Assembly: GCA_965261595.1 (NCBI GenBank)
Contig: CBDHDG010000004.1
Coordinates: 672,001 to 736,000, forward strand
Source of the DNA: a bacterium
GTDB taxonomy: Bacteria; UBA8248; JACPRG01; G963555815
Reading direction: 5' to 3'
DNA: 64,000 bases
Shown here: piece by piece, positions 11,918 to 34,510 of the stretch
Position numbering within the stretch: the stretch's first letter is position 1
How the letters are laid out: each line of letters begins with the position of its first letter
Notes under the pieces: model-generated
What the model was told of the DNA's origin: nothing
Seen by the model: only the letters and a program-made list of their open reading frames with translations
Database searches by the model: none
Translations under genes and position numbers: made by a program

Positions 11918-12985
11918 TCACCGCGAAACATCGTCCCACAGCTCGACCGCCCGCCCCTCCCGGAAAGACCGATACGCGGCGAGGACGAAGGCCAGGGCCC
12001 GCCGCCCATCGTCCCCGGACAGATCCGCCGTTTCAGCGGCCGGAACCTCCCCGGCGGACATCGCGGATTGCCGGGCCCTCACCCCCCGCAAGAACTCGGC
12101 GTGCATCGCCGTGAAACCCGTCCGGTCTCTCGGGGACAAGAGATGAATCCTCCTCTTTTTTCCCGCAAGATAGAGAAAGTAGCCGTGGTTCTCGATATAA
12201 AGCGTCCCCTCCGTCCCGGAGACCGAGGAAAACTGCACCTTGCCGGGGGCCGGGATGCCCCAGGAATGGGTCAATTCCCCGACAACCCCGCCCTCATGCT
12301 CGCTGATGATGTGCACCGTATCCTCGAGGGGGACGCCCTCGCGGGTCTTCGGACCCCGGACGGCATAGACCTTCTTCGCCGCTCCAGCCAGACAGAACAA
12401 GGTGTCCACCCAGTGGATTCCCCCGTCCAGGAGCGCGCCGCCGCCCATCCGTTCCACATCGGTCCGCCATCCGCCATGCCTTGAGAGCTCCGAAATCTTC
12501 ACCCGGGCGCACTTCACCCGGCCAACGGCCCCCGCCTCGATGAGCCGCCGGGCCTTCCGGACGCTGGGTTTGAACCGGAAGTTCTCGGCCACCATCAGAA
12601 CACACCGGCCGCCGGTCTTCGATTCCGCCGCGCGGACGGCCCGGATGATTTCGTCGGCCTCCTCCAGCGTCCGTCCGAGGGGTTTTTCCATCAAAACGTG
12701 GACGCCGCGGGACGCGGCCAAAAGGGCGTGTTCAACGTGGAGATTGTGAGGCGTGCAGATGACAGCGGCGTGGACCCGCTCATCCCCGAGGGCCTGCTCG
12801 TGGGACCCGAAGCCGGCGTCCCCTCCGAACCGCGCCCGATACGTCTCGGCTTTTTCGGCCGAGCGGCTGGCGAAGAACAGCCGGGGTCTGTCTTTCAGAC
12901 GGCGGAGAGCCGCCGCGTGTCTGGGGGCGATCCCTCCGCATCCCACAATGCAAATACCGAGGGGTGAACGTGATTGGGCGGTCAA
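11918..12985 (-). CDS. Gfo/Idh/MocA-family oxidoreductase
   Basis: GCGGIA, ICTPH..H, HVLMEKP, GGGALLDGGIH..D. Confidence 0.9.
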   Translation of the reverse strand: MTAQSRSPLGICIVGCGGIAPRHAAALRRLKDRPRLFFASRSAEKAETYRARFGGDAGFGSHEQALGDERVHAAVICTPHNLHVEHALLAASRGVHVLMEKPLGRTLEEADEIIRAVRAAESKTGGRCVLMVAENFRFKPSVRKARRLIEAGAVGRVKCARVKISELSRHGGWRTDVERMGGGALLDGGIHWVDTLFCLAGAAKKVYAVRGPKTREGVPLEDTVHIISEHEGGVVGELTHSWGIPAPGKVQFSSVSGTEGTLYIENHGYFLYLAGKKRRIHLLSPRDRTGFTAMHAEFLRGVRARQSAMSAGEVPAAETADLSGDDGRRALAFVLAAYRSFREGRAVELWDDVSR

Positions 12986-14710: not shown

Positions 14711-14962
14711 TCAAACGGCAATCCCGCCCGCGATGGGCGGAAAGATTCCAACCACGTCCCCTTCGGCCAGACGCTCCTCCGCTGAAACCTGCCGGTGATT
14801 CCGCATCAAGAGATTCACCTCCTCCCGCGGGATCCCCATGCGCCGGATGATGTCGGACACCCGGGCCCCCTCGGGTAAATCCAGGGTGGAGCGCTTCCCG
14901 CGCCGGTCTTCCGGCGGAAGATACCCGATGAAGTGCGCAAAGACCCGGACCTCAATTCTCAC
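14711..14962 (-). CDS. MoaD/ThiS-family sulfur carrier
   Basis: 83 aa, LAEGDVVGIFPPIAGG motif followed by IAV. Confidence 0.85.
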   Translation of the reverse strand: MRIEVRVFAHFIGYLPPEDRRGKRSTLDLPEGARVSDIIRRMGIPREEVNLLMRNHRQVSAEERLAEGDVVGIFPPIAGGIAV

Positions 14963-16190
14963 GGCGCAGGACCTCTCTGGCCGCCGCGAGGGCCTCCTCG
15001 TGCACCCGCCGGAGGGGAACCCCTTGCTCCCGCGCCGCCCGGCGGCAATCCTCGTACTCGGGCGACACCCCCGGGTCCGGCCCCCCGCACGGGGAAGACA
15101 CCTTGACCCTCAGCGGGCCGTATCGCGTCCGCACCGTCATCTCGCGGCGCGCGACCGCCAGCCGGTCGGTCCAGGTCCAACGGACGCCGAGGCTCGATGT
15201 CTCTCGCAGGACCGCATGCACGAGGGCGCTCTTCTTCTCTGGCCGGCCCAACACGGAGAGGAGGATTCCGGGGCGGGATTTCTTCATGCCCACCGGCGTC
15301 CAATAGACATCCAACGCCCCCTCCGCGAAGAGGATCTCACCCACGTGCTCGTAGAACTCGGGGTTCATGTCGTCGATGTTGGCCTCGATGAGGACCAGGC
15401 GCTCGATGACCGCTCCCCCGCCCTCCCCATCCATCCCCTCTTCCACCGGCTCCCCCAGGACGAGCCGCAAGACGTTGGGCCGTTCCAGGTCCCGGGTTCC
15501 CGCGCCGTACCCCACGGCCTTGAGCCGCATGGGCGGCATGGGGCCGAAGGCGTCCGCCAGCGTCGTCAACAGGGCCGCGCCGGTCGGCGTCACGAGCTCG
15601 GCCTCGATCCCGGTCCCCCGAACCGGCACATCCCGGACCAGCTCCAGCGTGGCCGGGGCCGGAACGGGCTGTTGTCCGTGGGCGGAGCGGATGAACCCGG
15701 CGCCCAAAGGGAGCGGCGAAGCCTCGACGCGCCCGACGCCCAACAGGGCGAGGCCCGCGACCGCTCCCACGATGTCCGCGATGGCGTCCAGGGCCCCGAC
15801 TTCGTGGAAATGGACCTCCTCAATCCCGATGCGGTGAATCCGGGACTCCGCCTCGGCCAGACGGCGAAAGACCCGCAGGCTCTTCTCCTTCACCGCCTCC
15901 GAGAGGGCGCTCGATTCGATGATCCGCCGGACCTCGGCGTAGCGGCGGTGTTCGTGGCGCTCCTCCCCCGGGGGAGGGTGGGAGGGGGGGCGGGCCGGGG
16001 TCACGACATCCACCTTTGTGGCGCCGAACCCGTTCTTCTTGACGGACCTTGCGCGCAAGGACAGGCCCGGCAAGCGAAGCCGGTCGATCTCCCCCTGAAG
16101 GTCTTCGATGGGAAGACCCGCGTCCACCAGGGCCCCCAGCGTCATGTCTCCGCTGACGCCCGACACGCAGTCGAAGTAGGCGAGCGTCAC
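14952..16190 (-). CDS. larC: Nickel-pincer cofactor nickel insertase
   Basis: YFDCVSGVSGDM.LGAL, VHFHEVGALDAIADIVG, PVPAPAT, ELVTPTGAA, EANIDDMNPE, MKKSRPG. Confidence 0.95.
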   Translation of the reverse strand: MTLAYFDCVSGVSGDMTLGALVDAGLPIEDLQGEIDRLRLPGLSLRARSVKKNGFGATKVDVVTPARPPSHPPPGEERHEHRRYAEVRRIIESSALSEAVKEKSLRVFRRLAEAESRIHRIGIEEVHFHEVGALDAIADIVGAVAGLALLGVGRVEASPLPLGAGFIRSAHGQQPVPAPATLELVRDVPVRGTGIEAELVTPTGAALLTTLADAFGPMPPMRLKAVGYGAGTRDLERPNVLRLVLGEPVEEGMDGEGGGAVIERLVLIEANIDDMNPEFYEHVGEILFAEGALDVYWTPVGMKKSRPGILLSVLGRPEKKSALVHAVLRETSSLGVRWTWTDRLAVARREMTVRTRYGPLRVKVSSPCGGPDPGVSPEYEDCRRAAREQGVPLRRVHEEALAAAREVLRREN

Positions 16191-16951
16191 GTCCCGATCC
16201 GGTTGATTTTGTCGGCCTGAACCGCGGCGCCAAACCCGTTGTCGATGTTCACCACCGAAACCCCCGGGGCGCAGGAATTAAGCATGGCGAGCAGCGCGGC
16301 CAGCCCGCCGAAGCTCGCCCCGTAGCCGACGCTCGTCGGGACCGCGATGACCGGGCAGTCCACCAGCCCGCCGACAACGCTCGGCAGCGCCCCCTCCATC
16401 CCCGCCACGACGATGATCACCCGGGCCTTGCGGAGGATCGGCCACCTGTCGAGCAATCGCGGAAGGCCGGCCACGCCCACGTCGTAAACACGCTCCACCC
16501 GGTTGCCCCACGCCTCGAGCGTGAAGGCCGCCTCCTCGGCGACGGGATAATCCGCCGTCCCGCCGGAAGCCACCGCCACCCGGCCGAATCCGTCCCTCGG
16601 CGAAGCCGGGGGCTCACGGCGGATGAGAGCGATGCGGGCCTCGGGGTTGCACTCAAATGGAAATCCCAGGGATTCCAGGGCCCGCGCGGATTCCGGCGGG
16701 AGCCGGGTCGCCAGGACCATGTCCTCGCCGCCCCTCAGAATCTCCCGGGCGATGTCACGGGTCTGATCCGGCGTCTTCCCCTCGGCGAAGATGACTTCGC
16801 CGCGTCCGGTCCGCAGGGCCCGGTGATGATCGACCTTCGCGAAGCCGAGATCGGTGAAAGGCATCGCCCGGAGGCGATCGAGGGCCTCCTCCGGGGCGAC
16901 CCGGCCCGCCTCGACCTCGATCAGCAAGGACCTCAGGCGATCAACGTTCAT
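16187..16951 (-). CDS. larB: Nickel-pincer cofactor biosynthesis carboxylase/hydrolase
   Basis: AKVDHHR..R.G..EVI..EGKT, DVGVAG, VAGMEGALPSVVGGL, PTSVGYGA, VNIDNGFGAA. Confidence 0.95.
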   Translation of the reverse strand: MNVDRLRSLLIEVEAGRVAPEEALDRLRAMPFTDLGFAKVDHHRALRTGRGEVIFAEGKTPDQTRDIAREILRGGEDMVLATRLPPESARALESLGFPFECNPEARIALIRREPPASPRDGFGRVAVASGGTADYPVAEEAAFTLEAWGNRVERVYDVGVAGLPRLLDRWPILRKARVIIVVAGMEGALPSVVGGLVDCPVIAVPTSVGYGASFGGLAALLAMLNSCAPGVSVVNIDNGFGAAVQADKINRIGT

Positions 16952-17816
16952 GCGCGAAAACGGGTGTGGAGATGACCGGCAGCGGGATCGACCCGGGACG
17001 ATCGGCGGGCGGCCCGTTCAGGCTCCCGGTGCGGTACCCCTTCAGGTCTACGGAGACCTTGGGAAACCCGATCCGCTGAAACGCGCGAGAGACCGCGTCC
17101 ATCATGCCGGGCTCGAAGAACCGGGCGATCTCCCCCGCCTCCACCTCGATCCGGGCCAACGGTCCGTGGTGGCGGACCCGGAGCTGGCGAAAGCCGAGCC
17201 CCCTCAAATGGGCCTCGGCCCGCTCCACCGTCCTGAGCTTCTCGGCGGTCACCCGCTGTCCCCGGGGAATCCGCGAGGCCAGACAGGCCATGGCCGGCTT
17301 GTCCCAGGTGGGCAGCCCCATCGCCTTGGAGAGGACGCGAATCTCCGCCTTGGTCAGGTCCGCCTCCAGCAAGGGGCTGCGAACGCCGTACGCCCGCGCG
17401 GCCGCCCGCCCGGGCCGCTCATCGGACAGGTCGTCCGGGATTGTGCCGTCCGCCACGCAGGCGATTCCCTCGCGGTCCGCAATCGAGACCAGCCGGCGGA
17501 AAAGCTCTTCCTTGCAGAAAAAGCACCGGTCGGCGGCATTGGCGGCGTATCGCGGATCGGCCAGCTCCCGGGTGTCGATCTCGAGGAGACGGATGCCGAT
17601 CCGCTCGGCCACGCGCCGGGCCTCGGCGAGATCGGACGCCGGAAGAGAGGGCGACCGCCCCGTCACCGCGAGGGCGCCGTCGCCCAGGACGCGCCTTGCG
17701 GCGTCGGCCAGAAAGGCGCTGTCCACCCCGGCGGAGAACGCCACCAGGACGCTTCCCATCCGGAGGAGGATCGTTTCCAGATTCCGGTGTTTCTGTTTCG
17801 TCGGCGGGGGGATCAA
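16941..17816 (-). CDS. larE: ATP-dependent sulfur insertase of NPN biosynthesis
   Basis: PP-loop SAGVDS, RCFFCK, KPAMACLASRIP, RVRHHG, DLKGYRTGS. Confidence 0.95.
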   Translation of the reverse strand: MIPPPTKQKHRNLETILLRMGSVLVAFSAGVDSAFLADAARRVLGDGALAVTGRSPSLPASDLAEARRVAERIGIRLLEIDTRELADPRYAANAADRCFFCKEELFRRLVSIADREGIACVADGTIPDDLSDERPGRAAARAYGVRSPLLEADLTKAEIRVLSKAMGLPTWDKPAMACLASRIPRGQRVTAEKLRTVERAEAHLRGLGFRQLRVRHHGPLARIEVEAGEIARFFEPGMMDAVSRAFQRIGFPKVSVDLKGYRTGSLNGPPADRPGSIPLPVISTPVFAHER

Positions 17817-17923: not shown

Positions 17924-19234
17924 ATGGCGAAGGAGAAAGCCCCGGTTGCGGGCCAGGCGTCGACAGCGGAGACCCCGCTTCCGGCCAAGCGCTCGATGTT
18001 CGAGAACGCCCAGCTCTATTTCGACCGGATCGCCGAACAGATGGATCTGGACGATGGAATCCACCAGCTCCTTCGCACGCCGGTGCGCGAGCTGACGGTC
18101 AACTTTCCCGTCGTTTTGGATGACCGCACCGTCCGGATCTTTCAGGGATACCGGATTCAGCACAGCCTCCTGCGCGGACCGGCCAAAGGGGGCATCCGCT
18201 ACGCCCCCTCCGTCACGCAGGATGAGGTCCGGGCGCTGGCCATGGGGATGACCTGGAAGACAGCGGTCGTCAACGTTCCTTTCGGCGGGGCGAAAGGCGG
18301 GGTCCGCGTCAACCCCAAGGAGGTCTCCGATCGCGAGCTGGAGCGGATCACCCGGCGTTATACGTCGGACATTTCGATCATCATCGGTCCCGACAGCGAC
18401 ATTCCGGCTCCCGACATGGGAACCGACGCCCGCGTCATGGCCTGGATCATGGACACCTACAGCATGAACAAGGGTTTTTCGATTCCGGGCGTCGTCACCG
18501 GGAAGCCGATCTCGATCGGCGGATCCCTGGGGCGGGTCGAGGCCACGGGACGGGGCGTCATGTTCGCCACCGTCCTGGCCGCGAAGAAGCTCAACATCAA
18601 CCTTCACGACGCCAAGGTCGCCATCCAGGGCTTCGGCAATGTGGGATCGGTGACCGCCAAGATCCTGGATGAAATCGGCTGCCGGATCATCGGCGTCAGC
18701 GACGGGGAGGGGGGCATCCACAATCCGTCGGGGCTCGACATGGAAGCCGTCTTCGAATACAAGGACGGACCCGGCGGCCAATCGGTCAACGGGTTTCCCG
18801 AGGCGGACGCCCTGTCGAGCGACGAAGTCCTCTATCTGGACGCGGACATCGTGATCCCCGCCGCCATCGAGAACCAGATCCGGGCCGACAACGTGGACCG
18901 CATCCGGCCCCGGCTCCTCATCGAGGCGGCCAACGGACCCACCACGCCGGAAGCGGACGCGGCGCTTCTCGACCGGGGGGTCTTCATCGTGCCCGATATC
19001 TTCGCCAACGCCGGCGGCGTCATCGTCTCTTATCTGGAGTGGGTTCAGAACCTTCAGGAATTCCAGTGGACGGAGGAATCCATCAACCACCAGCTCAGGC
19101 GGACGATGGAAGAGAGCTTTCACGAGATCAACGAGATCGCCGATCAGAAGAAGGCCGACATGCGGACGGCCTCTTACCGCCTCGCCGTGAACCGGGTCGC
19201 CGAGGCGTTCAACGTCCGGGGCATTTTCCCGTAA
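17924..19234 (+). CDS. gdhA: Glu/Leu/Phe/Val dehydrogenase (glutamate dehydrogenase)
   Basis: GPAKGGIRY, MTWK, FGGAKGG, DIPAPD, QGFGNVG, EAANGP. Confidence 0.93.
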   Translation: MAKEKAPVAGQASTAETPLPAKRSMFENAQLYFDRIAEQMDLDDGIHQLLRTPVRELTVNFPVVLDDRTVRIFQGYRIQHSLLRGPAKGGIRYAPSVTQDEVRALAMGMTWKTAVVNVPFGGAKGGVRVNPKEVSDRELERITRRYTSDISIIIGPDSDIPAPDMGTDARVMAWIMDTYSMNKGFSIPGVVTGKPISIGGSLGRVEATGRGVMFATVLAAKKLNINLHDAKVAIQGFGNVGSVTAKILDEIGCRIIGVSDGEGGIHNPSGLDMEAVFEYKDGPGGQSVNGFPEADALSSDEVLYLDADIVIPAAIENQIRADNVDRIRPRLLIEAANGPTTPEADAALLDRGVFIVPDIFANAGGVIVSYLEWVQNLQEFQWTEESINHQLRRTMEESFHEINEIADQKKADMRTASYRLAVNRVAEAFNVRGIFP

Positions 19235-19278
19235 TCCCCCGCGCGATTCCTTACGGGAGGGGGGAGGAGGGAGGGGCA

Positions 19279-19884
19279 ATGTCACGGAAGCGAAGCCTTT
19301 GGGCCGCGCTCATCGCGTGGGTCCTTCTCGTTCCGCCGGCCCCAGGCCCGGCGGCGGCGAAGAAAGACCGGGGAAAATATTCCTCCTCCTCCTCCCCCTT
19401 TCGGATTCTCAAGCGCCGTCCGAAGTTCGGTCTCGTCCGATTCCCGAAAGCGCGCCCCTCGCCTGAATTCAGCCTCCCGGATCTCGAAGGGAAAATCGTC
19501 CGCCTTTCGGACCTTCGCGGCAAGGTGCTGGTCTTGAATTTCTGGGCCACCTGGTGTCCCCCCTGCGTGGAAGAAATGCCCAGCCTCGAGAAGCTCCACC
19601 GGCATTTCCAGGGAAGGCCGTTCGAGGTGGTCGCTGTCTCGGTAGACGCCGAAGGTGTGGAGAAGGTCCGGGAATTCGTGAAAAAAGGAGGATTCACCTT
19701 CCGGGTCCTGCACGACCGGAAAAAGACGACGGAGCGCCCTTTCGGCGTCCGCGGCCTTCCGATCTCCTACGTGATCGACACCAAAGGGAGGATGGTGGCG
19801 GGGGCCATCGGGGCCAAGGATTGGGCCTCGAAGAAGGCTTACGCGTACTTCGAGGGGCTTTTGAAGGGTGTTTCGAGCCCATAG
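19279..19884 (+). CDS. TlpA/ResA-like periplasmic thiol-disulfide oxidoreductase
   Basis: Signal peptide; LNFWATWCPPCVEEMP; GLP cis-Pro loop; GGAGGAGG RBS. Confidence 0.9.
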   Translation: MSRKRSLWAALIAWVLLVPPAPGPAAAKKDRGKYSSSSSPFRILKRRPKFGLVRFPKARPSPEFSLPDLEGKIVRLSDLRGKVLVLNFWATWCPPCVEEMPSLEKLHRHFQGRPFEVVAVSVDAEGVEKVREFVKKGGFTFRVLHDRKKTTERPFGVRGLPISYVIDTKGRMVAGAIGAKDWASKKAYAYFEGLLKGVSSP

Positions 19885-21021: not shown

Positions 21022-21743
21022 GTGAATCGAATTCGATGGATGGCCCTGGGGATTGTGCTCCCCGCGATGTTCTGGACTTTTTCCGCGTGGGGTTACGAGG
21101 TCGTCGAGGTAAAGGACGGCGGCGCGGTGAGCGGAACAATCACATTCGAGGGACAGGCCCCGGCGCCGAAAGAATTGCGCGTCACCAAAACGAAAATGTC
21201 TGCGGGGTGAAGCCCTTATTTTCCCAGGAGTTCGTCGTCTCCAAGAAGGGGGCGCTCAAGAACGTCGTGATTTCGCTGGTCGGCGTTGAAAAGGGCAAGG
21301 CCTTCAAGAAGAAATCCGCCCGGCTGATTCAGCGGCAGTGCATGTTCGTCCCGCACGTCGCCCTGATCCCGGTCGGAAAGCGGTTCAAACTCGTCAACGA
21401 GGACAAGCTCCTCCACAACCTCCGGACCCTATCGAAAGAGAACGTCGCCCTGAACATCGCCCACCCGAAGTTCAAAAAGACCCTCCGGATCAAGAAGAAG
21501 TTCAAGAAACCCGAAATCATGCGGATCAAATGCGACATCCATTCCTGGATGGACGGGTGGATCATCGCCATCGCTCACCCCTACTACGTCGTATCCAAAA
21601 AGTCCGGCCGGTTCACCCTGAAGAACGTCCCCCCGGGCGCATACAAGCTCCGGGCCTGGCACGAGATCCTGGGCGAACAGGTCCAAACCGTCACGGTCCC
21701 CGCCGGCGGAGAGGTGAAGGCCGATTTCACTTTCAAGAAATAG
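21022..21743 (+). CDS. Secreted cupredoxin-like / carboxypeptidase-regulatory-like domain protein (1-nt frameshift near 21190)
   Basis: Signal peptide; QxxCxFxPHV, HN, CDIHSWM, PPGxYxLxAWHE; frames join if one A is added to the run at 21187-21190. Confidence 0.75.
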
Positions 21744-21753
21744 CCTCCTCGGC

Positions 21754-22905
21754 ATGAGCCCCCTGCCGCCCTCCGGCGCCCGAGCGCGCTCCGCGAGCCG
21801 TTCGCGCCCCTCCGCCCAAGGGCGATGCCCCCGCCTTGGGCGGGCCTGTCGCGCCCTCCTCGCGGGATTCCCCGCTCCGTCTTCCGCCCACCACGTCAAG
21901 ATGCGGTCCGGCCCCTTCGGCGGAATGGTCAGCTCCATTTCCATCCACCCCTCGGACCCGCGAAGGATTTACGCGGGGGTCTTCGGCACTGGTGTCTTCG
22001 GCGCGGGGGTCTACCGCTCGGACGACGGCGGGACCCTTTGGACCGCGAAATCCAGGGGCCTGACGGACACCGGCGTCTACAGCGTCCTCGTCCTCCCGGC
22101 AGGCGGAACCGTCCTGGCGGCCACGAACACCGGGGTTTTCCGGTCCGTGGACGGGGGTGAATCGTGGAAGCCGTCGAATCGCGGACTCCCCGATACAGGG
22201 GTCCGGATGTTCGCCCCCCTGTCCGAAAGCCACATCCTGGCCGCAACCGGGTCGGGGGTGTTTCGCAGCCGCGCCGGGGGAAAGACCTGGGCGGATGCGT
22301 CCGAAGGGCTCACAAACCAGGACGTCCGATGGCTTACCGTCGAGCCCGACGCGAAGAGAACGATCTTCGCGGCCACCTTCGGGGGCCTTTTCGAGAGCCG
22401 GGACGGCGGACGGACCTGGCGGGAAAAGGGTCTCTCCCTCCCCCCACTGCGCACGGCCATTGTGGCGGCGGGGGGACGGACGGTGATCGCCGGTTCGGCG
22501 AACCGGGGCGCCTTCATCAGCCTGGACGGGGGCGCGACGTTCAAACCCGCGAATGAAGGCCTCCCCAGCCCCTACATCATGGCCCTCGGATTCTCGGCGG
22601 CGGCGGGGGAGGAAGAAGGAGCAGAGGGATCTCCACCCATCTTCCTGGCCGGGACCCTCGGCGGATTGTACGTGAGCCGCAACGGAGGAAGCCGTTGGAA
22701 TTACCTGTCGAGCGACATGACGAACCTGTCCATTACGGCCTTCGCCGTCCATCCGAAGGACCCGAAGATGATTTTCGCCGCCACCGGCGGCCTGATCTTC
22801 CGGACGGCCGATGGAGGCCGCACTTGGACGAACCAGGCGCGCTGGGTGATCCATCATGCGGGGAGATTGAATCCGGCGCGGGGAAAATCCTTCGCCGGCC
22901 GGTGA
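21754..22905 (+). CDS. BNR/Asp-box repeat beta-propeller protein (VPS10/Ycf48-like)
   Basis: Repeated GVYRSDDGGxxW / SxDGGxTW Asp boxes; start uncertain. Confidence 0.8.
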   Translation: MSPLPPSGARARSASRSRPSAQGRCPRLGRACRALLAGFPAPSSAHHVKMRSGPFGGMVSSISIHPSDPRRIYAGVFGTGVFGAGVYRSDDGGTLWTAKSRGLTDTGVYSVLVLPAGGTVLAATNTGVFRSVDGGESWKPSNRGLPDTGVRMFAPLSESHILAATGSGVFRSRAGGKTWADASEGLTNQDVRWLTVEPDAKRTIFAATFGGLFESRDGGRTWREKGLSLPPLRTAIVAAGGRTVIAGSANRGAFISLDGGATFKPANEGLPSPYIMALGFSAAAGEEEGAEGSPPIFLAGTLGGLYVSRNGGSRWNYLSSDMTNLSITAFAVHPKDPKMIFAATGGLIFRTADGGRTWTNQARWVIHHAGRLNPARGKSFAGR

Positions 22906-22999
22906 ACGGTTGCGGGACCGCCGGCCTGATCCGTGATTGCGAATGACCGTGGGCGCATGCGCCAAAGGAGAGAAGCTCCATGAAAGGGAGGGAAGTTCC

Positions 23000-23719
23000 A
23001 TGAAAGGGAGAAACCGGAAGTGGTTGGGCGTTTCCTTGCTGGCCCTGGCGTTTGCCGTCAGCGGGCCGATGGGCTGGACGCAAACGTCCGACGCCGCAAA
23101 GAAGGCCAATCCATGTAACCCATGCGCCGCGAAGAAGGGAAATCCGTGTAATCCGTGCGCGGCCAAGGGAAATCCATGCAATCCCTGCGCGGCGAAGAAG
23201 GCCAATCCGTGCAACCCATGTGCGGCCAAGAAGGCCAACCCATGCAACCCGTGCGGGGTCAAAGCCAAGGCGAATCCGTGCAACCCGTGCGCGGCCGGCG
23301 GCGGCCGGAAGGGCCCCCGGGCCAAGGCCCGGATGATCATCGGGAAGGTGCTCTACGCGAAAGGCAATTACGTGGCGGTCCAGTGGAAGGGCGCGAAAAT
23401 CAACATCGGCGTCCACGCCAAAACGCAGTACTCCCGCGGACCCGCCAAATCCTCCCTCGGCTCGATCAAGCCGGGAGAGCGGATCATCGTTTCGATGATG
23501 GATCGGGGCGGCAAACTGAGCGCCAACTACGTCTACCTGTCCAAGGCCTCGAAGGGCGGAAACCCCTGTAACCCATGCGCGGCCAAAGGGAATCCCTGCA
23601 ACCCGTGTGCGGCCAAGAAGGCCAACCCGTGCAACCCATGCGCCGCCAAAGGAAATCCCTGCAATCCATGCGCGGCGAAGAAGGCCAACCCGTGCAACCC
23701 GTGCGCGGCCAAAAAGTGA
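23000..23719 (+). CDS. Secreted protein with 11 NPCNPC repeats flanking a small basic beta-rich domain
   Basis: RBS, signal peptide ending SDAA, 6 N-terminal and 5 C-terminal NPCNPC units, synonymous codon variation among units. Confidence 0.88.
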   Translation: MKGRNRKWLGVSLLALAFAVSGPMGWTQTSDAAKKANPCNPCAAKKGNPCNPCAAKGNPCNPCAAKKANPCNPCAAKKANPCNPCGVKAKANPCNPCAAGGGRKGPRAKARMIIGKVLYAKGNYVAVQWKGAKINIGVHAKTQYSRGPAKSSLGSIKPGERIIVSMMDRGGKLSANYVYLSKASKGGNPCNPCAAKGNPCNPCAAKKANPCNPCAAKGNPCNPCAAKKANPCNPCAAKK

Positions 23720-23805
23720 TTGCGGCTTGTGCCGACGGATTCCGAGCGGGATTCGAAAGAGACGCGTCCAAACGCGGAACACTCGAACTCAAGGGAGGTC
23801 AATCA

Positions 23806-24435
23806 ATGCTTCGATCATGGACGAGGGTCTCGGCGGCCCTCCTCGCAGCGGTGGTGATGACGGCCGGGACGGCCGCAATCGCCTCCGCCCAGAAAAAGAA
23901 GACCATCCCCATGGGGCCCTATTTTCAAACGCTCCAGAAGGATGCGTCCATCGCCGCCGCCATCAAGCGGGGAAAGCGGCAGTTCAACCAACTGGGTTGC
24001 GCTGGCTGTCATCCGCGCGGGGGCACCATCGGCGGAACCGCCCGGGCGGTCGACGGAAGCCCGGTGCCCGTTCCCATTCCCCAGCTCGTGGGCGCGGCCC
24101 TTCACTACCCGCGCCTATCGATGACGGGGTTCGCGGCGAACATCGGCATCATGAACGACCTCTGAAACACGATCTTTCTCGGCCGTGAGCCGATGGATCC
24201 CAATTCCCAGCAGTACATGGACCTGTACGCCTACGTCGCCTCTCTTACACCGGCGGTCAAAAAGGAGATGCTCCGGTGGGAGAAAGAGCGCCAGGCCCTG
24301 ATGAAGAAAATCATGAGCAAGGGCGGGGGCGGCAAAGGCAACCCCTGCAACCCGTGCGCGGCCAAAGGGAACCCGTGCAATCCTTGCGCGGCCAAGAAGG
24401 CCAATCCGTGCAACCCATGCGCGGGGAAGAAGTAA
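23806..24435 (+). CDS. SoxA/TsdA-like monoheme cytochrome c, predicted selenoprotein (U120), with 3 C-terminal NPCNPC repeats
   Basis: GGAGG RBS, signal peptide, CAGCH, LVGAALHYP, MNDL-TGA-NTIFLG..DPNSQQYMDLYAYVASL in one frame. Confidence 0.82.
24171..24199 (+). promoter_or_regulatory. Bacterial SECIS-like hairpin
   Basis: Stem TCGGC/GCCGA (24179-24193), loop CGTGA with GT, 18 nt between the TGA and the loop; lower GATC/GATC pairing. Confidence 0.72.
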
Positions 24436-24460: not shown

Positions 24461-24494
24461 GAAAGGGGGACGGTTGCGAGGCCGTCCCCCTTTC
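24461..24494 (+). terminator. Strong hairpin after the cytochrome gene (terminator or mRNA-stabilising)
   Basis: GAAAGGGGGACGG-N8-CCGTCCCCCTTTC perfect 13-bp stem. Confidence 0.7.
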
Positions 24495-24552
24495 GATTTG
24501 GTTCCGCGAAAAAATTCGGCGCGGATGAACACTGAAGATGGATGGAGAAACG

Positions 24553-25317
24553 ATGAACGCATTCCGGAGACTCTTCGTCGGCGGCATTTTCCTGGCCGTC
24601 GGGTGGGCGGCGTCGCCCGCGATAAGCGCCGAAATCAAGGGCGACCTGGAACAGGGCAAAGACGTCTACGAGGAGATCTGCTTCTCATGCCACGGCGCCA
24701 GAGGGGACGGGAAGGGCCCGAGCTTCCGGAACACGATGCCCTACCCCCAGGTTTTCGCGAATCCCAACTACATGAAGCGCCTGACGCCGCAATACATGTT
24801 CGACGTGGTGAAGTTCGGCAAGCTCGCCGTCATCAAAGGCGAGAAGCAGACCGGGAAGTACGACGTCCTGCCCATGCCCGGGTTCGAGGATTCCCTGGAG
24901 GACGGGGAGATCCGCGGTCTGATCGCCTATGAGAAGTTTCTCCTGACCGGAAAGTGGAACCCACCCAAAGGAAGTGAATTCACGCAAGCGGATATGAAGG
25001 AGTACTTCGACGGGGCCTGCGCCGAGTGCCACGGCCCGAAGGGCAAGGGAAACGGGGACAAGGCGGTCGGAAAGCAGGACCCCGGCAAACCGTTCGTCAG
25101 CGTCGCCCAGCCCGCGCCCGCCGACCAGACCGACCCCCTCCTCATGGCCCGGTTCAACGACGAGTTCATCTTCTGGCTGATCAAGAAAGGCCGCATCGCC
25201 GTCACCGAAGAGAAGAACTTCGACATCATGAAACCCTACGGACACGTCATGAGCGACGAGGAGATCTGGAGCGTCGTGCGGTACGTGTGGGAAACGTATA
25301 TCGAAAAGAAAAAGTGA
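24553..25317 (+). CDS. Diheme cytochrome c
   Basis: Signal peptide; CFSCH and CAECH; PMPGF and MKPY distal Met motifs. Confidence 0.9.
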   Translation: MNAFRRLFVGGIFLAVGWAASPAISAEIKGDLEQGKDVYEEICFSCHGARGDGKGPSFRNTMPYPQVFANPNYMKRLTPQYMFDVVKFGKLAVIKGEKQTGKYDVLPMPGFEDSLEDGEIRGLIAYEKFLLTGKWNPPKGSEFTQADMKEYFDGACAECHGPKGKGNGDKAVGKQDPGKPFVSVAQPAPADQTDPLLMARFNDEFIFWLIKKGRIAVTEEKNFDIMKPYGHVMSDEEIWSVVRYVWETYIEKKK

Positions 25318-25385: not shown

Positions 25386-26597
25386 CTACGGAAGCAGAAT
25401 CGTTCTATCGTACAGGACATACGGCGAAGACATCGCGTGGGCGCGGGCCTTCTCGATCAGTCCGCGCGCCCGGGCGCTCATCCGGCCCTGGAGAAGCGAA
25501 GGGAAGAACGTCGCGCCGTAGTAATCGTCGGGATGGACCTCCACGAAGACGTGGAGGCGCTTCGCCCCCCGGGGGTTGGGCGCGTTGTAGTCGAAGACGC
25601 GGGTCTTCCCGGGGGGGATGCGCGTGTCCGACCGCTCGACCCAGCCGCCTTCGTATTCAAGCCGGCGTTGGATGCGGTCCGCCCGGCGGCTCCCCTCGAT
25701 GGTCTTTCCATTCTCGTCGAGCAGCTCCACCTTGATGAAGACGGCCGGAATCATGTACGTCGGAAACATGTGACCCGCCCCGGTGTTGGTCAGGGTGATT
25801 CGCGCGACGGCCCGGCCCGGAACGGCCTCCTTCCCCCGGGGGACCACAACGCCCAGCGTCACCGCCCGGGCCGTCATCTCCTTGTCGTGAATGCCCCGCC
25901 ACAGGTGCTTGCGCCCCGGCATGTGGCAATCCTGGCACTGAACGCCCAGCTTTGAATACGGCCCTTCTTTCCACTCCACATACGTGTTCTCAATCGGCTT
26001 TCCGTTAACGGCCGCCGACATCGGATGCTGGTGGCACGTCCGGCAAAACTCCGACCGCTCGAAGGCGGTCGTCCGGGTTACGCCTCCGTGGGGCGATTTC
26101 TCCACGCTGGGTCCAAGGGATTTCCCCGCCTTCGGCGGGCCGAACCGCTCGTGCCCCCGCACGTGACAAGCGGCGCAGATCAGCCCCCCCTTCTCCAAAT
26201 CTTTCACGTAGCCCTCGTTCCTGACGACCGTCCCCGACCGCCCGACCCGATAAGGCTGCTGCTCGGCCAGGGGGGCGTGACAACCCACGCAGTCCTCCGC
26301 CCCGGCGGGATTGTCCACCCACTGGCCGACCACGCCCGGGCCCATGGCCTTGGCGTGAAGACTCGTCTTCCAGTCAGCGAGCTGGGCGGGGTGGCAAGCC
26401 CCGCAGGACTGGGGATCGAGCGCGCTTTCCAAGGGAGAGAACCCTTTGGGCGGCTTCCCGTTGGGCGCGAACGGAGATTGCCAGTGCTTGGCGACGAACG
26501 CTTCGATCGCCGGGTCCGGCGACTGGGCCGGGGCCTGGTCCGAAGAGAGCAGGAAGAAACCGGCGCAAGCGACGACGCGAAAAAATGTTTGCCGCAT
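25386..26597 (-). CDS. Pentaheme cytochrome c (c554-like multiheme family)
   Basis: Signal peptide; CGACH, CVGCH, CAACH, CRTCH, CQDCH; C-terminal NTGAGHxFPT domain. Confidence 0.9.
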   Translation of the reverse strand: MRQTFFRVVACAGFFLLSSDQAPAQSPDPAIEAFVAKHWQSPFAPNGKPPKGFSPLESALDPQSCGACHPAQLADWKTSLHAKAMGPGVVGQWVDNPAGAEDCVGCHAPLAEQQPYRVGRSGTVVRNEGYVKDLEKGGLICAACHVRGHERFGPPKAGKSLGPSVEKSPHGGVTRTTAFERSEFCRTCHQHPMSAAVNGKPIENTYVEWKEGPYSKLGVQCQDCHMPGRKHLWRGIHDKEMTARAVTLGVVVPRGKEAVPGRAVARITLTNTGAGHMFPTYMIPAVFIKVELLDENGKTIEGSRRADRIQRRLEYEGGWVERSDTRIPPGKTRVFDYNAPNPRGAKRLHVFVEVHPDDYYGATFFPSLLQGRMSARARGLIEKARAHAMSSPYVLYDRTILLP

Positions 26598-26672: not shown

Positions 26673-27017
26673 ATCAGAATCCAGCCGAAATCAACAATCG
26701 ATTGCTACTTCTTGGCCGCGCAAGGATTGCAGGGGTTGGCCTTTTTCGCCGCGCACGGGTTGCAAGGATTGGCCTTCTTCGCAGCGCACGGGTTGCAAGG
26801 ATTGGCCGCCACCTTGGCCGCGCACGGGTTTGCAGGGGTTGGCCTTTTTCGCGGCGCACGGGTTGGCCTTCTTGTGCCAGGCCGCGTCACTCACCCCGGA
26901 TCCCGCGACGAACAGGACCGCGACCGCCGCCACCAGGAAACTACACAACAGTCCCCCGCTCTAGGGTTTTGTTGGACACTCGATTGATCCATGATTCATG
27001 GAGAAAGGGGTGTCGCG

Positions 27018-27404
27018 ATGAACGAACAAAAGCAAGAGGGGGCTTTGGCGGAGGGCGCCCGCAGGGCGAACGGAGCCAAGGCCCCAGGGCATCGCAGTGA
27101 GCGGGGTCGGTTCTCCTGCCAGCGCAAGCGGGAGGCGGTCCTGCGTCTTTTGCGGGGCGAGAGCCTGGAGACGCTCTGCCGCGAGTTGGGCACGACAGCG
27201 GCTCGGCTTTCCGCCTGGCGCGAGGCGTTCCTTCGCGGGGGCGAGGCGGCGCTCAAAGCCCGCCCGGCGGATGAGCGGGACGAGGAGAACGCCCGGCTCA
27301 AGGCCAAGGTGGGCGAACTCACGATGGAGGGCGAGGTCCTGCGGGAGAAGATCGACCGCCTGGAGGCCGGCCGCCCTTTAGCCGGCAGGAGGTGGAGGCG
27401 ATGA
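27018..27404 (+). CDS. IS3-family transposase OrfA
   Basis: HTH (KREAVLRLLRGESL..L.RELG) plus coiled coil (ENARLKAKVGELTME). Confidence 0.85.
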   Translation: MNEQKQEGALAEGARRANGAKAPGHRSERGRFSCQRKREAVLRLLRGESLETLCRELGTTAARLSAWREAFLRGGEAALKARPADERDEENARLKAKVGELTMEGEVLREKIDRLEAGRPLAGRRWRR

Positions 27405-28309
27405 GTCAGGCCCGCTTCACCTCCACGGGCAGAGCCTACGGCCTGAAGCGGGTGTGCGCCCTTTGGGGCTTGGCGCGCTCCACGGTCTACGCGCAACGGC
27501 GGCGAGAGGCGGTCCCCGTTCATGAACGCCCCACGCCCAATAAGCGCGGCCCTGTGGGCCCGTGCACCGATGCGGAACTCCTCGGCCACATCCGGCAGGT
27601 CCTGGAGGACTCTCCCTTCCATGGCGAGGGCTACCGCAAGGTGTGGGCGAGGCTGCGCTTCGCGGGCATCCGCACCAGCAAGGAGCGGGTGCGTCGCCTG
27701 ATGCGGGAGGCGGGGCTTCAGGCCCCCCACCGGGTGGGCAAACCCCGAGGTCCCAAGGCCCACAACGGGACCATCCGCACCGAGCGGCCCGACCGAGTGT
27801 GGGGCACGGACATGACGACGACGGTGACCACCGAGGAGGGGATGGCCTCGGTGTTCGTGGCGGTGGATCACTGCTCGGTGGACTGCGTGGGGATCCATGC
27901 GGCCAAGAGCGGCAACCGCTTCGAGGCCCTGGAGCCGATCCGGCAGGGGGTCGCCGAGCGCTTCGCCGGCTTGGAGGCGGACGTCGCCGAGGGGCTTAAA
28001 GTTCGTCACGACCACGGCCCCGCCTATCTGTCCGATGACTTTCAGCGGGAGATCGCCTACCTGGGCATGACCAGTTCGCCCAGCTTCGTGCGGGCGCCCG
28101 AGGGAAATGGCTACTGTGAGTGGTTCATCCGCATCTTGAAGGAGAATCTCCTGTGGGTGCGCTCTTTCGCCACCGTAGAGGAACTGCGGTGGGCGCTGCT
28201 TGAGTTCAAGAACCTGTACAACCATCATTGGATTCTCGAGGGCTACGGCTACCGAACGCCGGCCCAGGCAAGGCAGGAAAAACTCGCTCAAGTTGCGGAG
28301 GCCGCATGA
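27401..28309 (+). CDS. IS3-family transposase OrfB (DDE)
   Basis: GYRKVWARL, WGTDMT, HDHG, GNGYCEWFIR; ATGA overlap with orfA. Confidence 0.9.
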   Translation: MSQARFTSTGRAYGLKRVCALWGLARSTVYAQRRREAVPVHERPTPNKRGPVGPCTDAELLGHIRQVLEDSPFHGEGYRKVWARLRFAGIRTSKERVRRLMREAGLQAPHRVGKPRGPKAHNGTIRTERPDRVWGTDMTTTVTTEEGMASVFVAVDHCSVDCVGIHAAKSGNRFEALEPIRQGVAERFAGLEADVAEGLKVRHDHGPAYLSDDFQREIAYLGMTSSPSFVRAPEGNGYCEWFIRILKENLLWVRSFATVEELRWALLEFKNLYNHHWILEGYGYRTPAQARQEKLAQVAEAA

Positions 28310-31026: not shown

Positions 31027-33347
31027 TTATTTCTTCAAGGCCGTCAACAGCTTCTCCGCCGTGACGGGAAGCGAGGTCATTCTCACGCCCGTGGCGTTAT
31101 AGACCGCGTTGGCGATGGCGGCGGCGGTCGGGTCGATGGGCGTCTCCGACCCCCCCTTTCCGCCGAACGGGCCGTACGGGTCGTTCGTCTCCACCAGGAT
31201 CGTCTGAATGGGCGGGGCGCCCTCGGCTCTCGGCAGGGGATAGTCGGCGAAGCTCCCGTTCACCACATCGCCCCCTTCGTAGATCATCCGCTCGTACAGG
31301 GCCAGCCCCAACCCCTGAATCACGGCCCCCTCCACCTGCCCTTCCGCCGTCAGCGGGTTCAGCGCCCGCCCGATGTCGTCGGCCGCGATGAGCCGCAGGA
31401 CTTCAATCCACCCGGTCTCGACGTCCACCTCCACCTCCGCCGTCTGGGCGGTGAAGGTGTACGCGCCTGCGATGTTTCCGTACCGGGTCTCATCAGCCAT
31501 CACCGAGGGGGGGTCATACGTCGCCCGGGCGACGATGGGCGCCCAACCGGGCCGGCAGACCGAATCCCGAATCAGCTCCCCGACCGAGAGGCCCTTCTCC
31601 CCGCTCCCCACGACCGAGATGCGCCCATCTTCGATCCGGAGGTCCTCCCGCGCCGCTTCGAGGCGGGAGGCGGCCAGACCCAGGATCTCCTCCCGGGCCT
31701 TTCCCGCCGCGCTCCGGACGGCGTTTCCCGCGATGAACATCAGGCGGCTCGCCCGCGCGCCGAACCCCAGGGGGATGATGTCCGTGTCCGCGGCGGAAAG
31801 CTCGATGTCCTCCAGACGGAACCCCAGCTCCTCGGCGGCGATCAGGGCCAGGACCGTGTTGGCCCCCTGGCCGATGTCCCCCTCGCCGATGACCAGGCCG
31901 GCCCGGCCGTCCTCGCGGATGCGGATCTCGGCCCCGGCGCCGTCCCAGTCCATGTGGACGCGGTTTCCGCTGACGTGGACGGCGCAGGCCATCCCGACCC
32001 CCCGGACGGCCCGCCGCCCGGCGCCGGAATCGAGCGCCCCTCCTCTCCCTTCCCCCTCCCGCCCTTCTCTCGCCGCCCCTTCCACCCGCAGGCCTCCGCC
32101 GCTTTGCGGATGCAGTCCGTGAGGCTGCAGCTCTTCATCTCCCAGCCGTGAATCGAGGTCTCGCCCTCCCGGATGGCGTTCTTCAACCGTAGGTCGAGGG
32201 GGTCCATCCCCAGCGCCTCCGCCAGGTGATCGAGGCAGGCCTCGAGGGCGAAGACCATCTGGGGGTTGCCCATCCCGCGGAACGCGCCCGCGGGCAGGCG
32301 GTTGGTGTAGACCATCCGCGCGTCCGTCCGGAGGGACCCGAACCGGTAGCAGTTGTCCATCCGCATGCACGTGACGCTCATGACCTTCTGCGTCCGGCCG
32401 CAGTAGGCGCCGGCGTCCCCCTCGATCCGGGCCTCTTTGGCCGTGAGATCGCCTTCGGCCGACGCGCCCACGCGCAGGCGGATCCGGTAAGGGACCCGGG
32501 GCCTCGATCCCCGGAATTCCTCCGTCCTGCTGTTCGACAGATGAACCGGAAGACCCGCCGCCCCGGCGAGCAGGGCGGCCAGGATGGTGTTGGGCTCGTC
32601 CACCATCTTTCCGCCGAACGCCCCGCCGACGCTGGGCTGGATGATCCGCACCCGGGAGGCCGATACGCCCAAGGCCTCGGCCACGCGGTCCCGGGCGGGA
32701 AAGATGTTCTGGACCGGGGCGTAGACGGTGAATTTCCCCGCCGGGTCCACTTCGGCGACTGTCCCGATGGGCTCCATGTAGGCGTGGTGCTGCATCGAGG
32801 TCTCGAACGTGTTCTCGTAAACGGCCGCCGCCCTCCCGAACGCCTCCTCCGGGTCCCCCCGCAAAAAGGTCATGCGCCGGGCGACGTTGTCCGGCCTCTC
32901 TTCATGGAGGACGGGCGCGCCCTCGGCCAACGCCTCGTCGATGCCCAGGACCGGCGGGAGGAGCTCGTATTCCACGCGGATCCGGTCGAGGGCTTCGAGG
33001 GCCGCGTCCTCTTCGGCCGCCGCCACGGCGGCGACCTCCTCTCCCGCGAAGCGGACGCGCCCCGCGGCCAGGGCCGTCTGATCTTTGATCTCGTGCCCCC
33101 AGCGGACTTGCGGAATGTCATCCCAGGTCAGGACGGCCCGGACCCCGGGGACCTTTTTGGCGGCGGCGGTGTCGATCCCGGCGATACGGGCGTGGGGGTG
33201 CGGACTGCGCAGGACTTTTCCCGTCAGCATGCGGGGAAGGCGGAGGTCCGCGACGTAAGCCGCCCTCCCCCGCGCCTTCGCCGGGGCCTCCAGCGTCGGG
33301 ACGGGCTTTCCGATCCAGCGAAACTCGCCGGGGTTCCGGCTCATCAT
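31027..33347 (-). CDS. Xanthine dehydrogenase-family molybdopterin-binding subunit (frameshift near 32050)
   Basis: LRSPHPHARI, VGGAFGGK, AFRGMGNPQ in the N part; GQVEG, GPFGGKGGSE in the C part. Confidence 0.85.
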
Positions 33348-33394
33348 GAACCTCGAACAGAGACCGGACCACGAGGGGGGGGGTCCGCGTCGGA

Positions 33395-34510
33395 TTACGG
33401 AATGACGATCAGCTCGTCGTTGGGGGTCTGATCGGACAGGACCTCGCACCCGGAATCGGTGACCGCGACCATGTCCTTGCTCTGAAGGCCGAAACCCTTT
33501 CCCACGCCATAGACCAAGGGCTCGATCCCGAGCACCATGCCCGCTTCCAGGCGGTGGTCGGAGTATTTTCCCAGGTAGGGATCCTCGTGCAAATGGAGAC
33601 CGATGCCGTGCCCCACGAAGGAGATGGGGGGAAGACCGAGCTCCCCGAACTTATCCAGGAACGCTTCATAGACGGCCCGGGCGCCCGCGCCGGGCTTGAT
33701 CAGACCGAGGACCCGTTCCTTGCACTCTATCAGGACCCGCCAGATGTCGATCTCCTCGGCCGAGGCCTCCCCGACGACCGCGGTCCGGCAAACGGCGGCG
33801 TGATACCCGCCGATGATCCCGAAAATCTCCACCCGGCAGAGATCCCCCCGCTTGAGGACGCGGTGCGTCGGCCCCACGTTGGGGTACTCGCTCCGCTCGC
33901 CGGTGGCGACGATCATCATCCTGAACTGTTCCGCGCCGCGCGCGTAGATCTCACGGGTCAGCGCCCCGGCCAGGTCCATCTCGGTCATCCCCTCCCGGAC
34001 GGCGCCGAGCGCCTCGCCCACGGCCTGGTCCGTGATCCGGGAGAGCCGCCGGAGGAGGTCGATCTCCTCGGGCGATTTCAACTGCCGCAGGCGGTTGAAA
34101 ATCTTCTGCGCGGCCGAAAACCGGGCCTCGGGCAGGAGGCCCCGTAGCTCCTCGAAGTCCCCGGCCGGGAGATAATCCATCTCGATCCCGACGGCGGCTT
34201 CGGCGAGTCCCAGGTCCCAGAGCAGCCGGGCGAACACCTCCATCGGCCGGTCGGTAAATTCCCCCCATACCCGGATCTCGACGCCTTCCGCCCGGCTCCG
34301 GACGGTGGTCTCCTCCATGTCGACGGTCAGGAGGGCCTCCCGTCCGTCCCCCGTGACGACGGCCATGGCGTGCCGCCAGCGCATCAAGTGCTGCGAGGGG
34401 ACGACGAATCCGGCGGTGTAGGCGAAGTTCTCCGGCGACATCGCGACCAGGGCGTCCAGACCGGCCTCGGCCATGGCATCGCGCTGCCGGCTGATGATTT
34501 CCTTTTGCAT
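33395..34510 (-). CDS. M24-family (Xaa-Pro peptidase/creatinase-like) hydrolase
   Basis: R.LKSPEEI, GHGIGL.LHEDP, LEAGMVLGIEP. Confidence 0.88.
   Translation of the reverse strand: MQKEIISRQRDAMAEAGLDALVAMSPENFAYTAGFVVPSQHLMRWRHAMAVVTGDGREALLTVDMEETTVRSRAEGVEIRVWGEFTDRPMEVFARLLWDLGLAEAAVGIEMDYLPAGDFEELRGLLPEARFSAAQKIFNRLRQLKSPEEIDLLRRLSRITDQAVGEALGAVREGMTEMDLAGALTREIYARGAEQFRMMIVATGERSEYPNVGPTHRVLKRGDLCRVEIFGIIGGYHAAVCRTAVVGEASAEEIDIWRVLIECKERVLGLIKPGAGARAVYEAFLDKFGELGLPPISFVGHGIGLHLHEDPYLGKYSDHRLEAGMVLGIEPLVYGVGKGFGLQSKDMVAVTDSGCEVLSDQTPNDELIVIP

Follow-up and report, generated by a model that had tools for sequence, protein, structure and literature searches.

A one-haem SoxA/TsdA-type cytochrome c with a predicted selenocysteine at the haem-ligand position

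What is the role of an in-frame TGA codon in the middle of a gene for a c-type cytochrome? The question is raised by a 64,000-nucleotide stretch of bacterial DNA (GenBank assembly GCA_965261595.1, contig CBDHDG010000004.1, positions 672,001 to 736,000), hereafter the window, to whose first letter all positions below refer. On the forward strand a TGA at 24163-24165 joins two open reading frames (ORFs), 23575..24165 (196 amino acids) and 24193..24435 (80 amino acids), which share a single frame. Nine sense codons lie between the TGA and the second ORF: AAC ACG ATC TTT CTC GGC CGT GAG CCG. A preliminary description of the locus had taken the two ORFs for one frame split by the TGA and these nine codons, and both the ORF list and the sequence agree with it. 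The upstream portion of ORF 23575..24165 overlaps the 3' end of the preceding gene, and the true start is likely the ATG at 23806, with GGGAGG 7 nucleotides upstream. Translation of 23806-24435 through the TGA, up to a TAA at 24433-24435, gives a protein of 209 residues with selenocysteine (Sec, U) at residue 120, in the context IGIMNDL-U-NTIFLGREPMDP. The motifs that had been quoted for this protein, CAGCH, LVGAALHYP, MNDL-U and DPNSQQYMDLYAYV, are all present in the read-through translation. From N- to C-terminus the product consists of a signal-peptide-like segment, a single CxxCH (C65-H69), U120, two helices and a tail of NPCNPCAAK repeats. The signal peptide implies export, which is a requirement for c-type haem attachment. 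We consider it quite probable that the gene encodes one exported, one-haem SoxA/TsdA-type cytochrome in which UGA 120 specifies Sec at the position of the distal-ligand cysteine.

The codon at column 120 was compared in 42 sequences, namely 41 reference-genome loci and the window (42 loci were found in total, one of which, L042, ends before the column). It is TGA in 28, TGC in 12 and TGT in two, and in no case TAA or TAG; the flanks of the column are conserved around this Cys/TGA pair. A search for homologues had been proposed as a check, with Cys or TGA expected at position 120 and any other residue counting against the idea, and only Cys and TGA were found. Apart from the window, the TGA-bearing loci (Sec forms) come from 27 independent assemblies belonging to several phyla. 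The family as a whole has loci in Nitrospinota, Tectimicrobiota, Methylomirabilota, Rokuibacteriota, Binatota, Myxococcota, Acidobacteriota, Thermodesulfobacteriota and Chloroflexota.

What follows the TGA has the marks of a coding sequence. The Cys forms run as one continuous reading frame across column 120, and in all of 26 Sec forms the frame is free of stops over the 40 codons that follow the TGA. A conserved peptide, NT[IV]FLGREP[MLIT]DPxSQ...DLxAYVxSL, is found there. Pairwise differences downstream of the TGA number 2642, 1607 and 5880 at codon positions 1, 2 and 3, respectively, a pattern indicating that this region is translated. Of the complete Sec-form genes, which number 25, 23 terminate at TAA or TAG. 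In a tree of 33 domain sequences (8 Cys forms and 25 Sec forms), the two kinds are parted by a single branch with 100/100 support. Judging from these comparisons, UGA 120 is in all probability decoded as selenocysteine.

A search of protein collections gave 189 matches; the following figures refer to the 120 listed. No fewer than 116 of these end exactly one residue before the column (...ND[LMVIFW]), three (P0004-P0006) have Cys there and continue into the shared downstream sequence, and the remaining one is a repeat-rich neighbour. Public predictions also contain, as separate items, N-terminal pieces ending ...MNDL and small C-terminal ORFs starting MDPNSQEY... or MFLGREP.... The expectation that annotation would split the gene is thus borne out, and the entries that end at this codon amount to a systematic annotation error. 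Three proteins from more distant subfamilies, P0160, P0169 and P0189, likewise break off a single residue short of the Cys column (...QNNM, ...MNNR and ...MNNG, respectively). Because of these ends, the ligand Cys may have been exchanged for Sec more than once, and TGA may also occur at this place outside the close family.

Bacterial selenocysteine insertion sequence (SECIS) elements are stem-loops located shortly downstream of the UGA, with a conserved G/U in the apical loop. The window has a hairpin, TCGGC/CGTGA/GCCGA, at 24179-24193. In the preliminary description its loop GT was placed 18 nucleotides after the TGA; the hairpin and the loop GT do exist, and the stem includes a compensatory pair, but the GT (24185-24186) lies at 20-21 nucleotides. 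The hairpin was aligned in 26 Sec forms, two of the 28 being cut by contig ends and excluded. The RNAalifold consensus is a 4-pair stem whose sole variable pair (alignment columns 24 and 36, window positions 24180 and 24192) is U-A in 14 sequences, C-G in 12 and broken in none. A longer helix of 8 pairs with a bulged U starts 10 nucleotides after the TGA, and 95.2% of its 208 cells are paired. Not one of 500 shuffles reaches its pairing value or its covariation score, and the controls in which the partner strand was slid attain 14-48%. An alternative lower stem was also tried and scores worse than the 8-pair helix. The third bases of the loop-closing Gly (GGC) and Glu (GAG) codons are invariant in all 26 sequences, while the loop U, like the loop CGUGA as a whole, is kept in 25. 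In contrast, third positions vary in 37 of 40 codons downstream. The alignment shows an RNA-level constraint on the hairpin in the Sec forms, and the feature specific to these forms is the frozen GGCCGUGAGCC core.

Genes for the decoding of UGA as Sec accompany some of the relatives. On L007, a contig from a metagenome-assembled genome, tRNA-SeC, SelD (364 bits, cut-off 125) and SelB (308 bits, cut-off 242) occupy positions 3349-6375, directly after the operon. L019, a Cys form, has a tRNA-SeC at 12421-12517, about 1.8 kb downstream of the cytochrome gene. Within the window, a TlpA/ResA-like thiol-disulfide oxidoreductase is encoded upstream of the cluster at 19039-19884 (+), its real start probably being an internal Met near 19279. 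This gene was considered as a second selenoprotein and discarded: it has an ordinary WCPPC and no TGA, and its match to the WAxxUGC model is weak.

To which family does the protein belong? Searched against Pfam, the window protein matches PF00034 (Cytochrom_C) only, with an expect value (E) of 1.5e-4 to 3.2e-4 over residues 53-147, that is, across the TGA. Its only NCBIfam match is ExtS of the Geobacter cluster (E 3e-4 to 5e-4). Among its relatives, PF21342 (SoxA-TsdA_cyt-c) is recognised at E <= 10 in 31 of 33 close members (best 3.4e-5) and in 30 of the 32 members of a broad alignment (best 3.9e-19), and the TIGR04484 SoxA model matches 27 of the 32 broad-family members. A profile search of 1.84 billion representatives retrieved 425 relatives, many of them proteins of 130-270 amino acids with one or two domains, all of which retain Cys in (M/V)-N-(N/D)-x-C. 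Compared with the PDB, the family profile matches SoxA (1H31, 2.2e-12), the di-haem peroxidase 3O5C (3.4e-12) and TsdA (4WQ7, 4e-11 over 114 positions). The link to TsdA and SoxA becomes visible only after distant relatives are added to the profile; PDB searches with the single sequence or with the close family gave weak peroxidase matches only, and neither TsdA nor SoxA.

A first AlphaFold model, based on the alignment of 33 sequences, had a mean predicted local distance difference test score (pLDDT) of 67.6 and gave a weak fold search. It was superseded by a model built on 47 sequences (pLDDT 93.9, predicted template modelling score 0.89). When the latter was used in a fold search, the top seven matches were TsdA entries (probability 1.00, template modelling score 0.53-0.56), followed by peroxidase, TsdBA and SoxA. 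The protein represents a distinct one-haem branch of the SoxA/TsdA superfamily and is neither a TsdA nor a SoxA; the SoxA/TsdA domain assigned to it at the outset stands at the level of the family.

Counting along the alignment of the family profile with the PDB sequences, the His of CxxCH corresponds to His53 of TsdA and the Sec/Cys column to Cys96, in agreement with the earlier proposal that Sec takes the place of the ligating Cys. The same column corresponds to residues 114 (first domain) and 222 (second domain) of the SoxA chain 1h31_A, cysteines which we take to be haem ligands. In haem 1 of TsdA, His53 is the proximal and Cys96 the distal ligand, and mutation of Cys96 abolishes activity, according to the available part of the source (PMC6879331). 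Only eight columns are invariant in the broad alignments: C65, C68, H69, U/C120, G56, G72, P102 and L140. Members of the superfamily typically have the distal-ligand Cys some 40-55 residues beyond the CxxCH site, and U/C120 conforms to this arrangement. Other residues were considered as the sixth ligand and set aside. Met130 (of PMDP) varies among M, T, I and L, and both Met116 (M/L/F) and residue 119 (L/M/V/W/F) are variable. His100 is not kept in the broad family, where T, N, S, K, R and others replace it, and was rejected as a general ligand. By alignment, no possible sixth ligand other than column 120 is conserved across the broad family. The mature protein is likely to carry a haem ligated by His69 and the selenolate, the Fe-Se bond being deduced from sequence correspondence.

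A number of results weigh against this picture of a UGA-encoded Sec that binds the haem iron. There is no tRNA-Sec in the 64-kb window, where only a tRNA-Leu was seen, and there is no SelA, SelB or SelD among the 61 window ORFs scanned. Taken alone, the energy of the hairpin is ordinary (z = -0.20; an equal or better fold in 74 of 200 shuffles), so that it is the comparison with relatives, not the local fold energy, that lifts the observation above chance. The covarying pair is the only one with a two-sided change; it needs 2-3 changes on the tree, and well-supported branches force one of these. A hairpin also arises at this place in the 14 Cys forms, with a mean of -10.7 kcal/mol, as against -8.7 kcal/mol in the Sec forms, and with variable loops. 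Because the Cys forms fold there too, the stem is partly a by-product of the encoded F-[IL]-G-x-x-P-M-D peptide; the hairpin of the Cys forms may be a relic of the element, its precursor, or such a by-product. No SECIS family of Rfam matches the region at either the gathering or the permissive thresholds. As to the protein, the window sequence itself scores below the PF21342 and TIGR04484 models, and Foldseek returned no match at E <= 0.001. His100, constant among the 33 close relatives, might play a part at the distal site. Residues 82 and 92 of the TsdA chain in the PDB, presumably the substrate arginines Arg109 and Arg119 by a numbering that we deduced, align with a Pro-rich variable position and with M/L/F116, neither of which is conserved, and the substrate is therefore not assignable from TsdA. 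Arg109 and Arg119 are described as active-site arginines of TsdA in the accessible portion of PMC6879331.

How, then, might the locus be explained otherwise? Sec could be inserted at residue 120 without being an iron ligand, acting as a catalytic residue in the distal pocket, with the sixth site filled by His100 or water, or left free. Besides the constancy of His100 among the close relatives, some known enzymes lend themselves to such a scheme. In MccSep, as far as the accessible text goes, Sec adjoins the haem and does not ligate it (PMC13510729), and the Cys ligand of TsdA and SoxA can dissociate and carry adducts (PMC6879331, available part). Yet the broader family gives up His100 and keeps the Cys, the counterparts of the column are the ligand Cys of TsdA and SoxA 114/222 and not a residue beside them, and the domain has no second conserved Cys that could assume the ligand role as in MccSep. 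We regard this arrangement as rather unlikely, albeit the least so of the alternatives.

Some bacteria recode Sec-type UGA to Cys, and relatives of the window protein carry Cys at the aligned column. UGA 120 might accordingly be read as Cys by a tRNA with a UCA anticodon, or as Cys or Trp by near-cognate decoding when selenium is scarce, and the product would be an ordinary His/Cys cytochrome. This seems very unlikely in view of the genuine tRNA-SeC, SelD and SelB beside the L007 operon, SelD being needed only if selenium is used, and of the single fully supported branch between Sec and Cys forms, as expected for a stable Sec clade. It is even harder to believe that the TGA is a true stop and that the locus is a pair of genes, a pseudogene or a product of misassembly. 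Gene finders do call it a stop, as the shortened entries and the separate C-terminal ORFs attest, and the hairpin is not significant alone. However, the same TGA is present in 27 independent assemblies and is never replaced by TAA or TAG, and the differences downstream of it are biased to third positions. Moreover, a single cytochrome domain with a confident fold spans the codon, the Cys forms are continuous, and a product of 119 amino acids would lose the distal-ligand residue together with the two C-terminal helices.

The haem protein with a predicted distal Sec may be compared with several known systems. TsdA (4WQ7 and related entries) is the best fold match and, like the window protein, an exported c-type cytochrome. 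Unlike the window protein, which has one CxxCH in 209 amino acids and whose match covers TsdA residues 20-129, TsdA has two haem domains; it has Cys96 in place of the Sec, and the window protein adds C-terminal helices and a tail of CxxC repeats. SoxA of SoxAX (1H31, 2C1D, 3OA8) is the best PDB profile match, both of its domains align, and a gene for a partner cytochrome adjoins in either case, as SoxX does beside SoxA. The window protein differs in having a single domain and in its partner, a di-haem CcoP/c4-like protein. None of the neighbours scanned was recognised as soxX, soxYZ or soxB, and none of the window ORFs scanned matches a Sox model. The C-terminal domain of the di-haem cytochrome c peroxidase 3O5C was the top match in single-sequence and close-family searches, and its fold superposes with a root-mean-square deviation of 3.3-4.3 A. 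The sixth ligand of that domain is a Met, located one residue before the Sec column in a weak alignment, and the window protein lacks the second haem domain. With a single domain and no conserved Met (116, 119 and 130 are variable), the protein does not belong to the di-haem peroxidase/MauG family.

Two other selenoproteins are of interest in this context. MccSep/ExtKL, a pentahaem polysulfide reductase of Geobacter, resembles the window protein in being a c-type cytochrome selenoprotein with an active haem of the His/Cys type and a sulfur/selenium chemistry (PMC13510729, available part). The same part of that paper reports that a Cys ligates the haem and that Sec325 stands beside it without being a ligand (PMC13510729), whereas the window protein has its predicted Sec at the ligand position; the fold and the number of haems also differ. 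A distant relative of MccSep is encoded 1 kb from the window gene (25386-26597). The other case is a native Sec-ligated cytochrome P450 of subfamily M, reported as the first of its kind in a preprint (PMC11703216, available part). There too, a TGA occupies the axial Cys position of a natural haem protein, found in truncated entries that could be read through to TAA or TAG. That protein has a b-type haem, the P450 fold and a single axial thiolate or selenolate, whereas the window protein is predicted to have a covalent c-type haem, a His/Sec pair and another chemistry.

The literature contained no Sec-containing SoxA/TsdA-type or one-haem cytochrome; the search did not cover Haft and Tolstoy 2025 and Deng et al. 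2026, which may bear on priority. In the available part of a 2026 inventory of prokaryotic selenoproteins (PMC13188914), the only cytochromes are ExtKL, the GSU2204 family and the octahaem tetrathionate reductase type, and neither SoxA, TsdA nor haem is mentioned. The main text of the BSepDB paper mentions neither cytochrome nor haem. On balance we lean towards the view that the window protein would be the first example in nature of a c-type cytochrome with a His/selenocysteinate haem and a member of an unannotated selenoenzyme family that extends over several phyla. Along with the di-haem cytochrome, the propeller and the carrier-like NPC-repeat proteins, it would make up a new periplasmic pathway of sulfur/selenium redox metabolism.

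The following scheme is tentative in its chemistry and its partners, both of which are drawn by analogy with TsdA/TsdB and SoxAX. SelB and tRNA-Sec would decode UGA 120, aided by the hairpin that begins 10 nucleotides downstream within the coding sequence. Sec120 would then sit where TsdA and SoxA have the Cys that serves as distal haem ligand and catalytic nucleophile. Upon reacting covalently with an anion of sulfur or selenium, to give an Se-S (or Se-Se) adduct, the selenolate might leave the iron. Two electrons would pass through the haem to or from the adjoining di-haem cytochrome c. Finally, the adduct could be handed on; the CxxC-rich NPC-repeat tails and the NPC-repeat proteins encoded in the cluster might receive it as carrier or resolving thiols.

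Haems of the c type with His/Cys ligation are rare; they form the catalytic centres of enzymes of the sulfur cycle, SoxAX, TsdA and MccSep among them. Should the proposal be correct, the protein would provide a native system to study the effects of selenium on haem potential, ligand lability and chalcogen transfer, questions that have so far been addressed with engineered Sec-P450s and the one reported native Sec-P450. The prokaryotic selenoproteome would gain a widespread family. Attention would also be drawn to a periplasmic gene cluster, conserved yet uncharacterised, that occurs in lineages of groundwater, soil and ocean, among them nitrite oxidisers and methane-oxidising Methylomirabilota.

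The features of the locus are collected in Table 1.

Table 1. Features of the cytochrome locus, in window coordinates. Counts of loci are from tblastn over 42 loci, many of them on short contigs.
Feature	Coordinates	Strand	Basis or remarks
Carboxypeptidase-regulatory-like domain protein	21036..21743	+	Pfam; 8/42 loci
BNR/Asp-box (Ycf48-like) beta-propeller	21754..22905	+	Sortilin-Vps10, BNR, PSII_BNR; upstream in 23/42 loci
NPC-repeat protein, repeats at both ends, small central domain	22937..23719	+	Listed as P0102; relatives in 28/42 loci
Whole predicted selenoprotein gene, 209-residue precursor, one-haem SoxA/TsdA-type cytochrome c	23806..24435	+	Translation through TGA; homologues
Signal peptide, residues 1-28 (...AAIASA|QKKK)	23806..23889	+	By eye from translation; putative cleavage site
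SoxA/TsdA-type cytochrome c domain, about residues 49-150, spans TGA	23950..24255	+	PF00034; PF21342 in relatives; PDB profile matches; AlphaFold
Haem attachment motif C65-A-G-C68-H69, His69 as proximal ligand	23998..24012	+	Invariant in relatives; aligns with TsdA C49-x-x-C52-H53
TGA, predicted selenocysteine 120 at haem-ligating Cys position	24163..24165	+	Codon counts in relatives; TsdA/SoxA alignment
SECIS-like hairpin inside coding sequence, 8 pairs, bulged U (24194), loop CGUGA (24184-24188)	24176..24197	+	Alignment of 26 Sec forms
Tail of (G)NPCNPCAAK repeats, each with C-N-P-C (CxxC) motif	24340..24432	+	Translation; some relatives have tail
Di-haem cytochrome c (CcoP/c4-like)	24538..25317	+	Cytochrome_CBB3 and Cytochrom_C, two stretches each; just downstream in 34/42 loci
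Five-CxxCH cytochrome, 403 amino acids, distantly ExtKL/MccSep-like	25386..26597	-	NF040886 E 5.4e-14, 51.6 bits, cut-off 250; 12/42 loci

The carboxypeptidase-regulatory-like, propeller, NPC-repeat, selenoprotein and di-haem cytochrome genes form a co-directional row with gaps of 10-102 nucleotides. The di-haem cytochrome is the probable electron partner of the selenoprotein. An inverted repeat rich in G+C, GGGGGACGG...CCGTCCCCC with TTTCGATTT after it (24469-24492), lies between the stop codon of the selenoprotein gene and the di-haem gene. It looks like a terminator to the eye, but a scan did not list it. The protein encoded at 22937-23719 has no Pfam or NCBIfam match, and for its central domain only weak, sub-threshold DUF5666-like leads were obtained (0.83-0.85, ESM Atlas). 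The five-haem cytochrome gene on the reverse strand has no in-frame TGA, and cytochrome c554 and MccSep are weak PDB matches of its product.

Runs of (G/A)NPCNPCAAK(K) repeats, each with C-N-P-C, are found at 23108-23299, 23561-23680 and 24340-24396 on the forward strand and at 26702-26830 on the reverse strand. They thus occur in three ORFs of the cluster: at both ends of the 22937-23719 protein, in the tail of the selenoprotein and in a small ORF at 26705-26890 (-). As to the selenoprotein, the tail is absent from the forms of Methylomirabilota and Rokuibacteriota and present in some other relatives. In L001, the closest relative, another in-frame TGA (10862-10864) separates the NPC-repeat tail from the helical region (...MKKLSR-TGA-GGGKGNPC...). 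Genuine termination, a further recoding site or an error might each account for it.

A two-ORF transposase adjoins the cluster at 26991-28309 (+), with HTH_Tnp_1 followed by an rve integrase core. Other mobile elements of the window are an IS1380-family transposase at 6323-7726 (-) and a fragment of another transposase at 8530-9078 (-). Genes for the nickel-pincer cofactor extend over 14952-17816 (-), with LarC at 14952-16190 and LarE at 16941-17816; an AIR-carboxylase-type protein encoded at 16187-16951 (-) may be LarB. Finally, a molybdenum subunit of the xanthine dehydrogenase family appears to be split over two overlapping ORFs in different frames at 31027-33449 (-), its N-terminal half at 31842-33449 and its C-terminal half at 31027-32370. 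The gene may have suffered a frameshift or be a pseudogene, or the assembly may be in error here. Intact paralogues of this subunit are encoded at 46126-48501 (-) and 48874-51162 (+).

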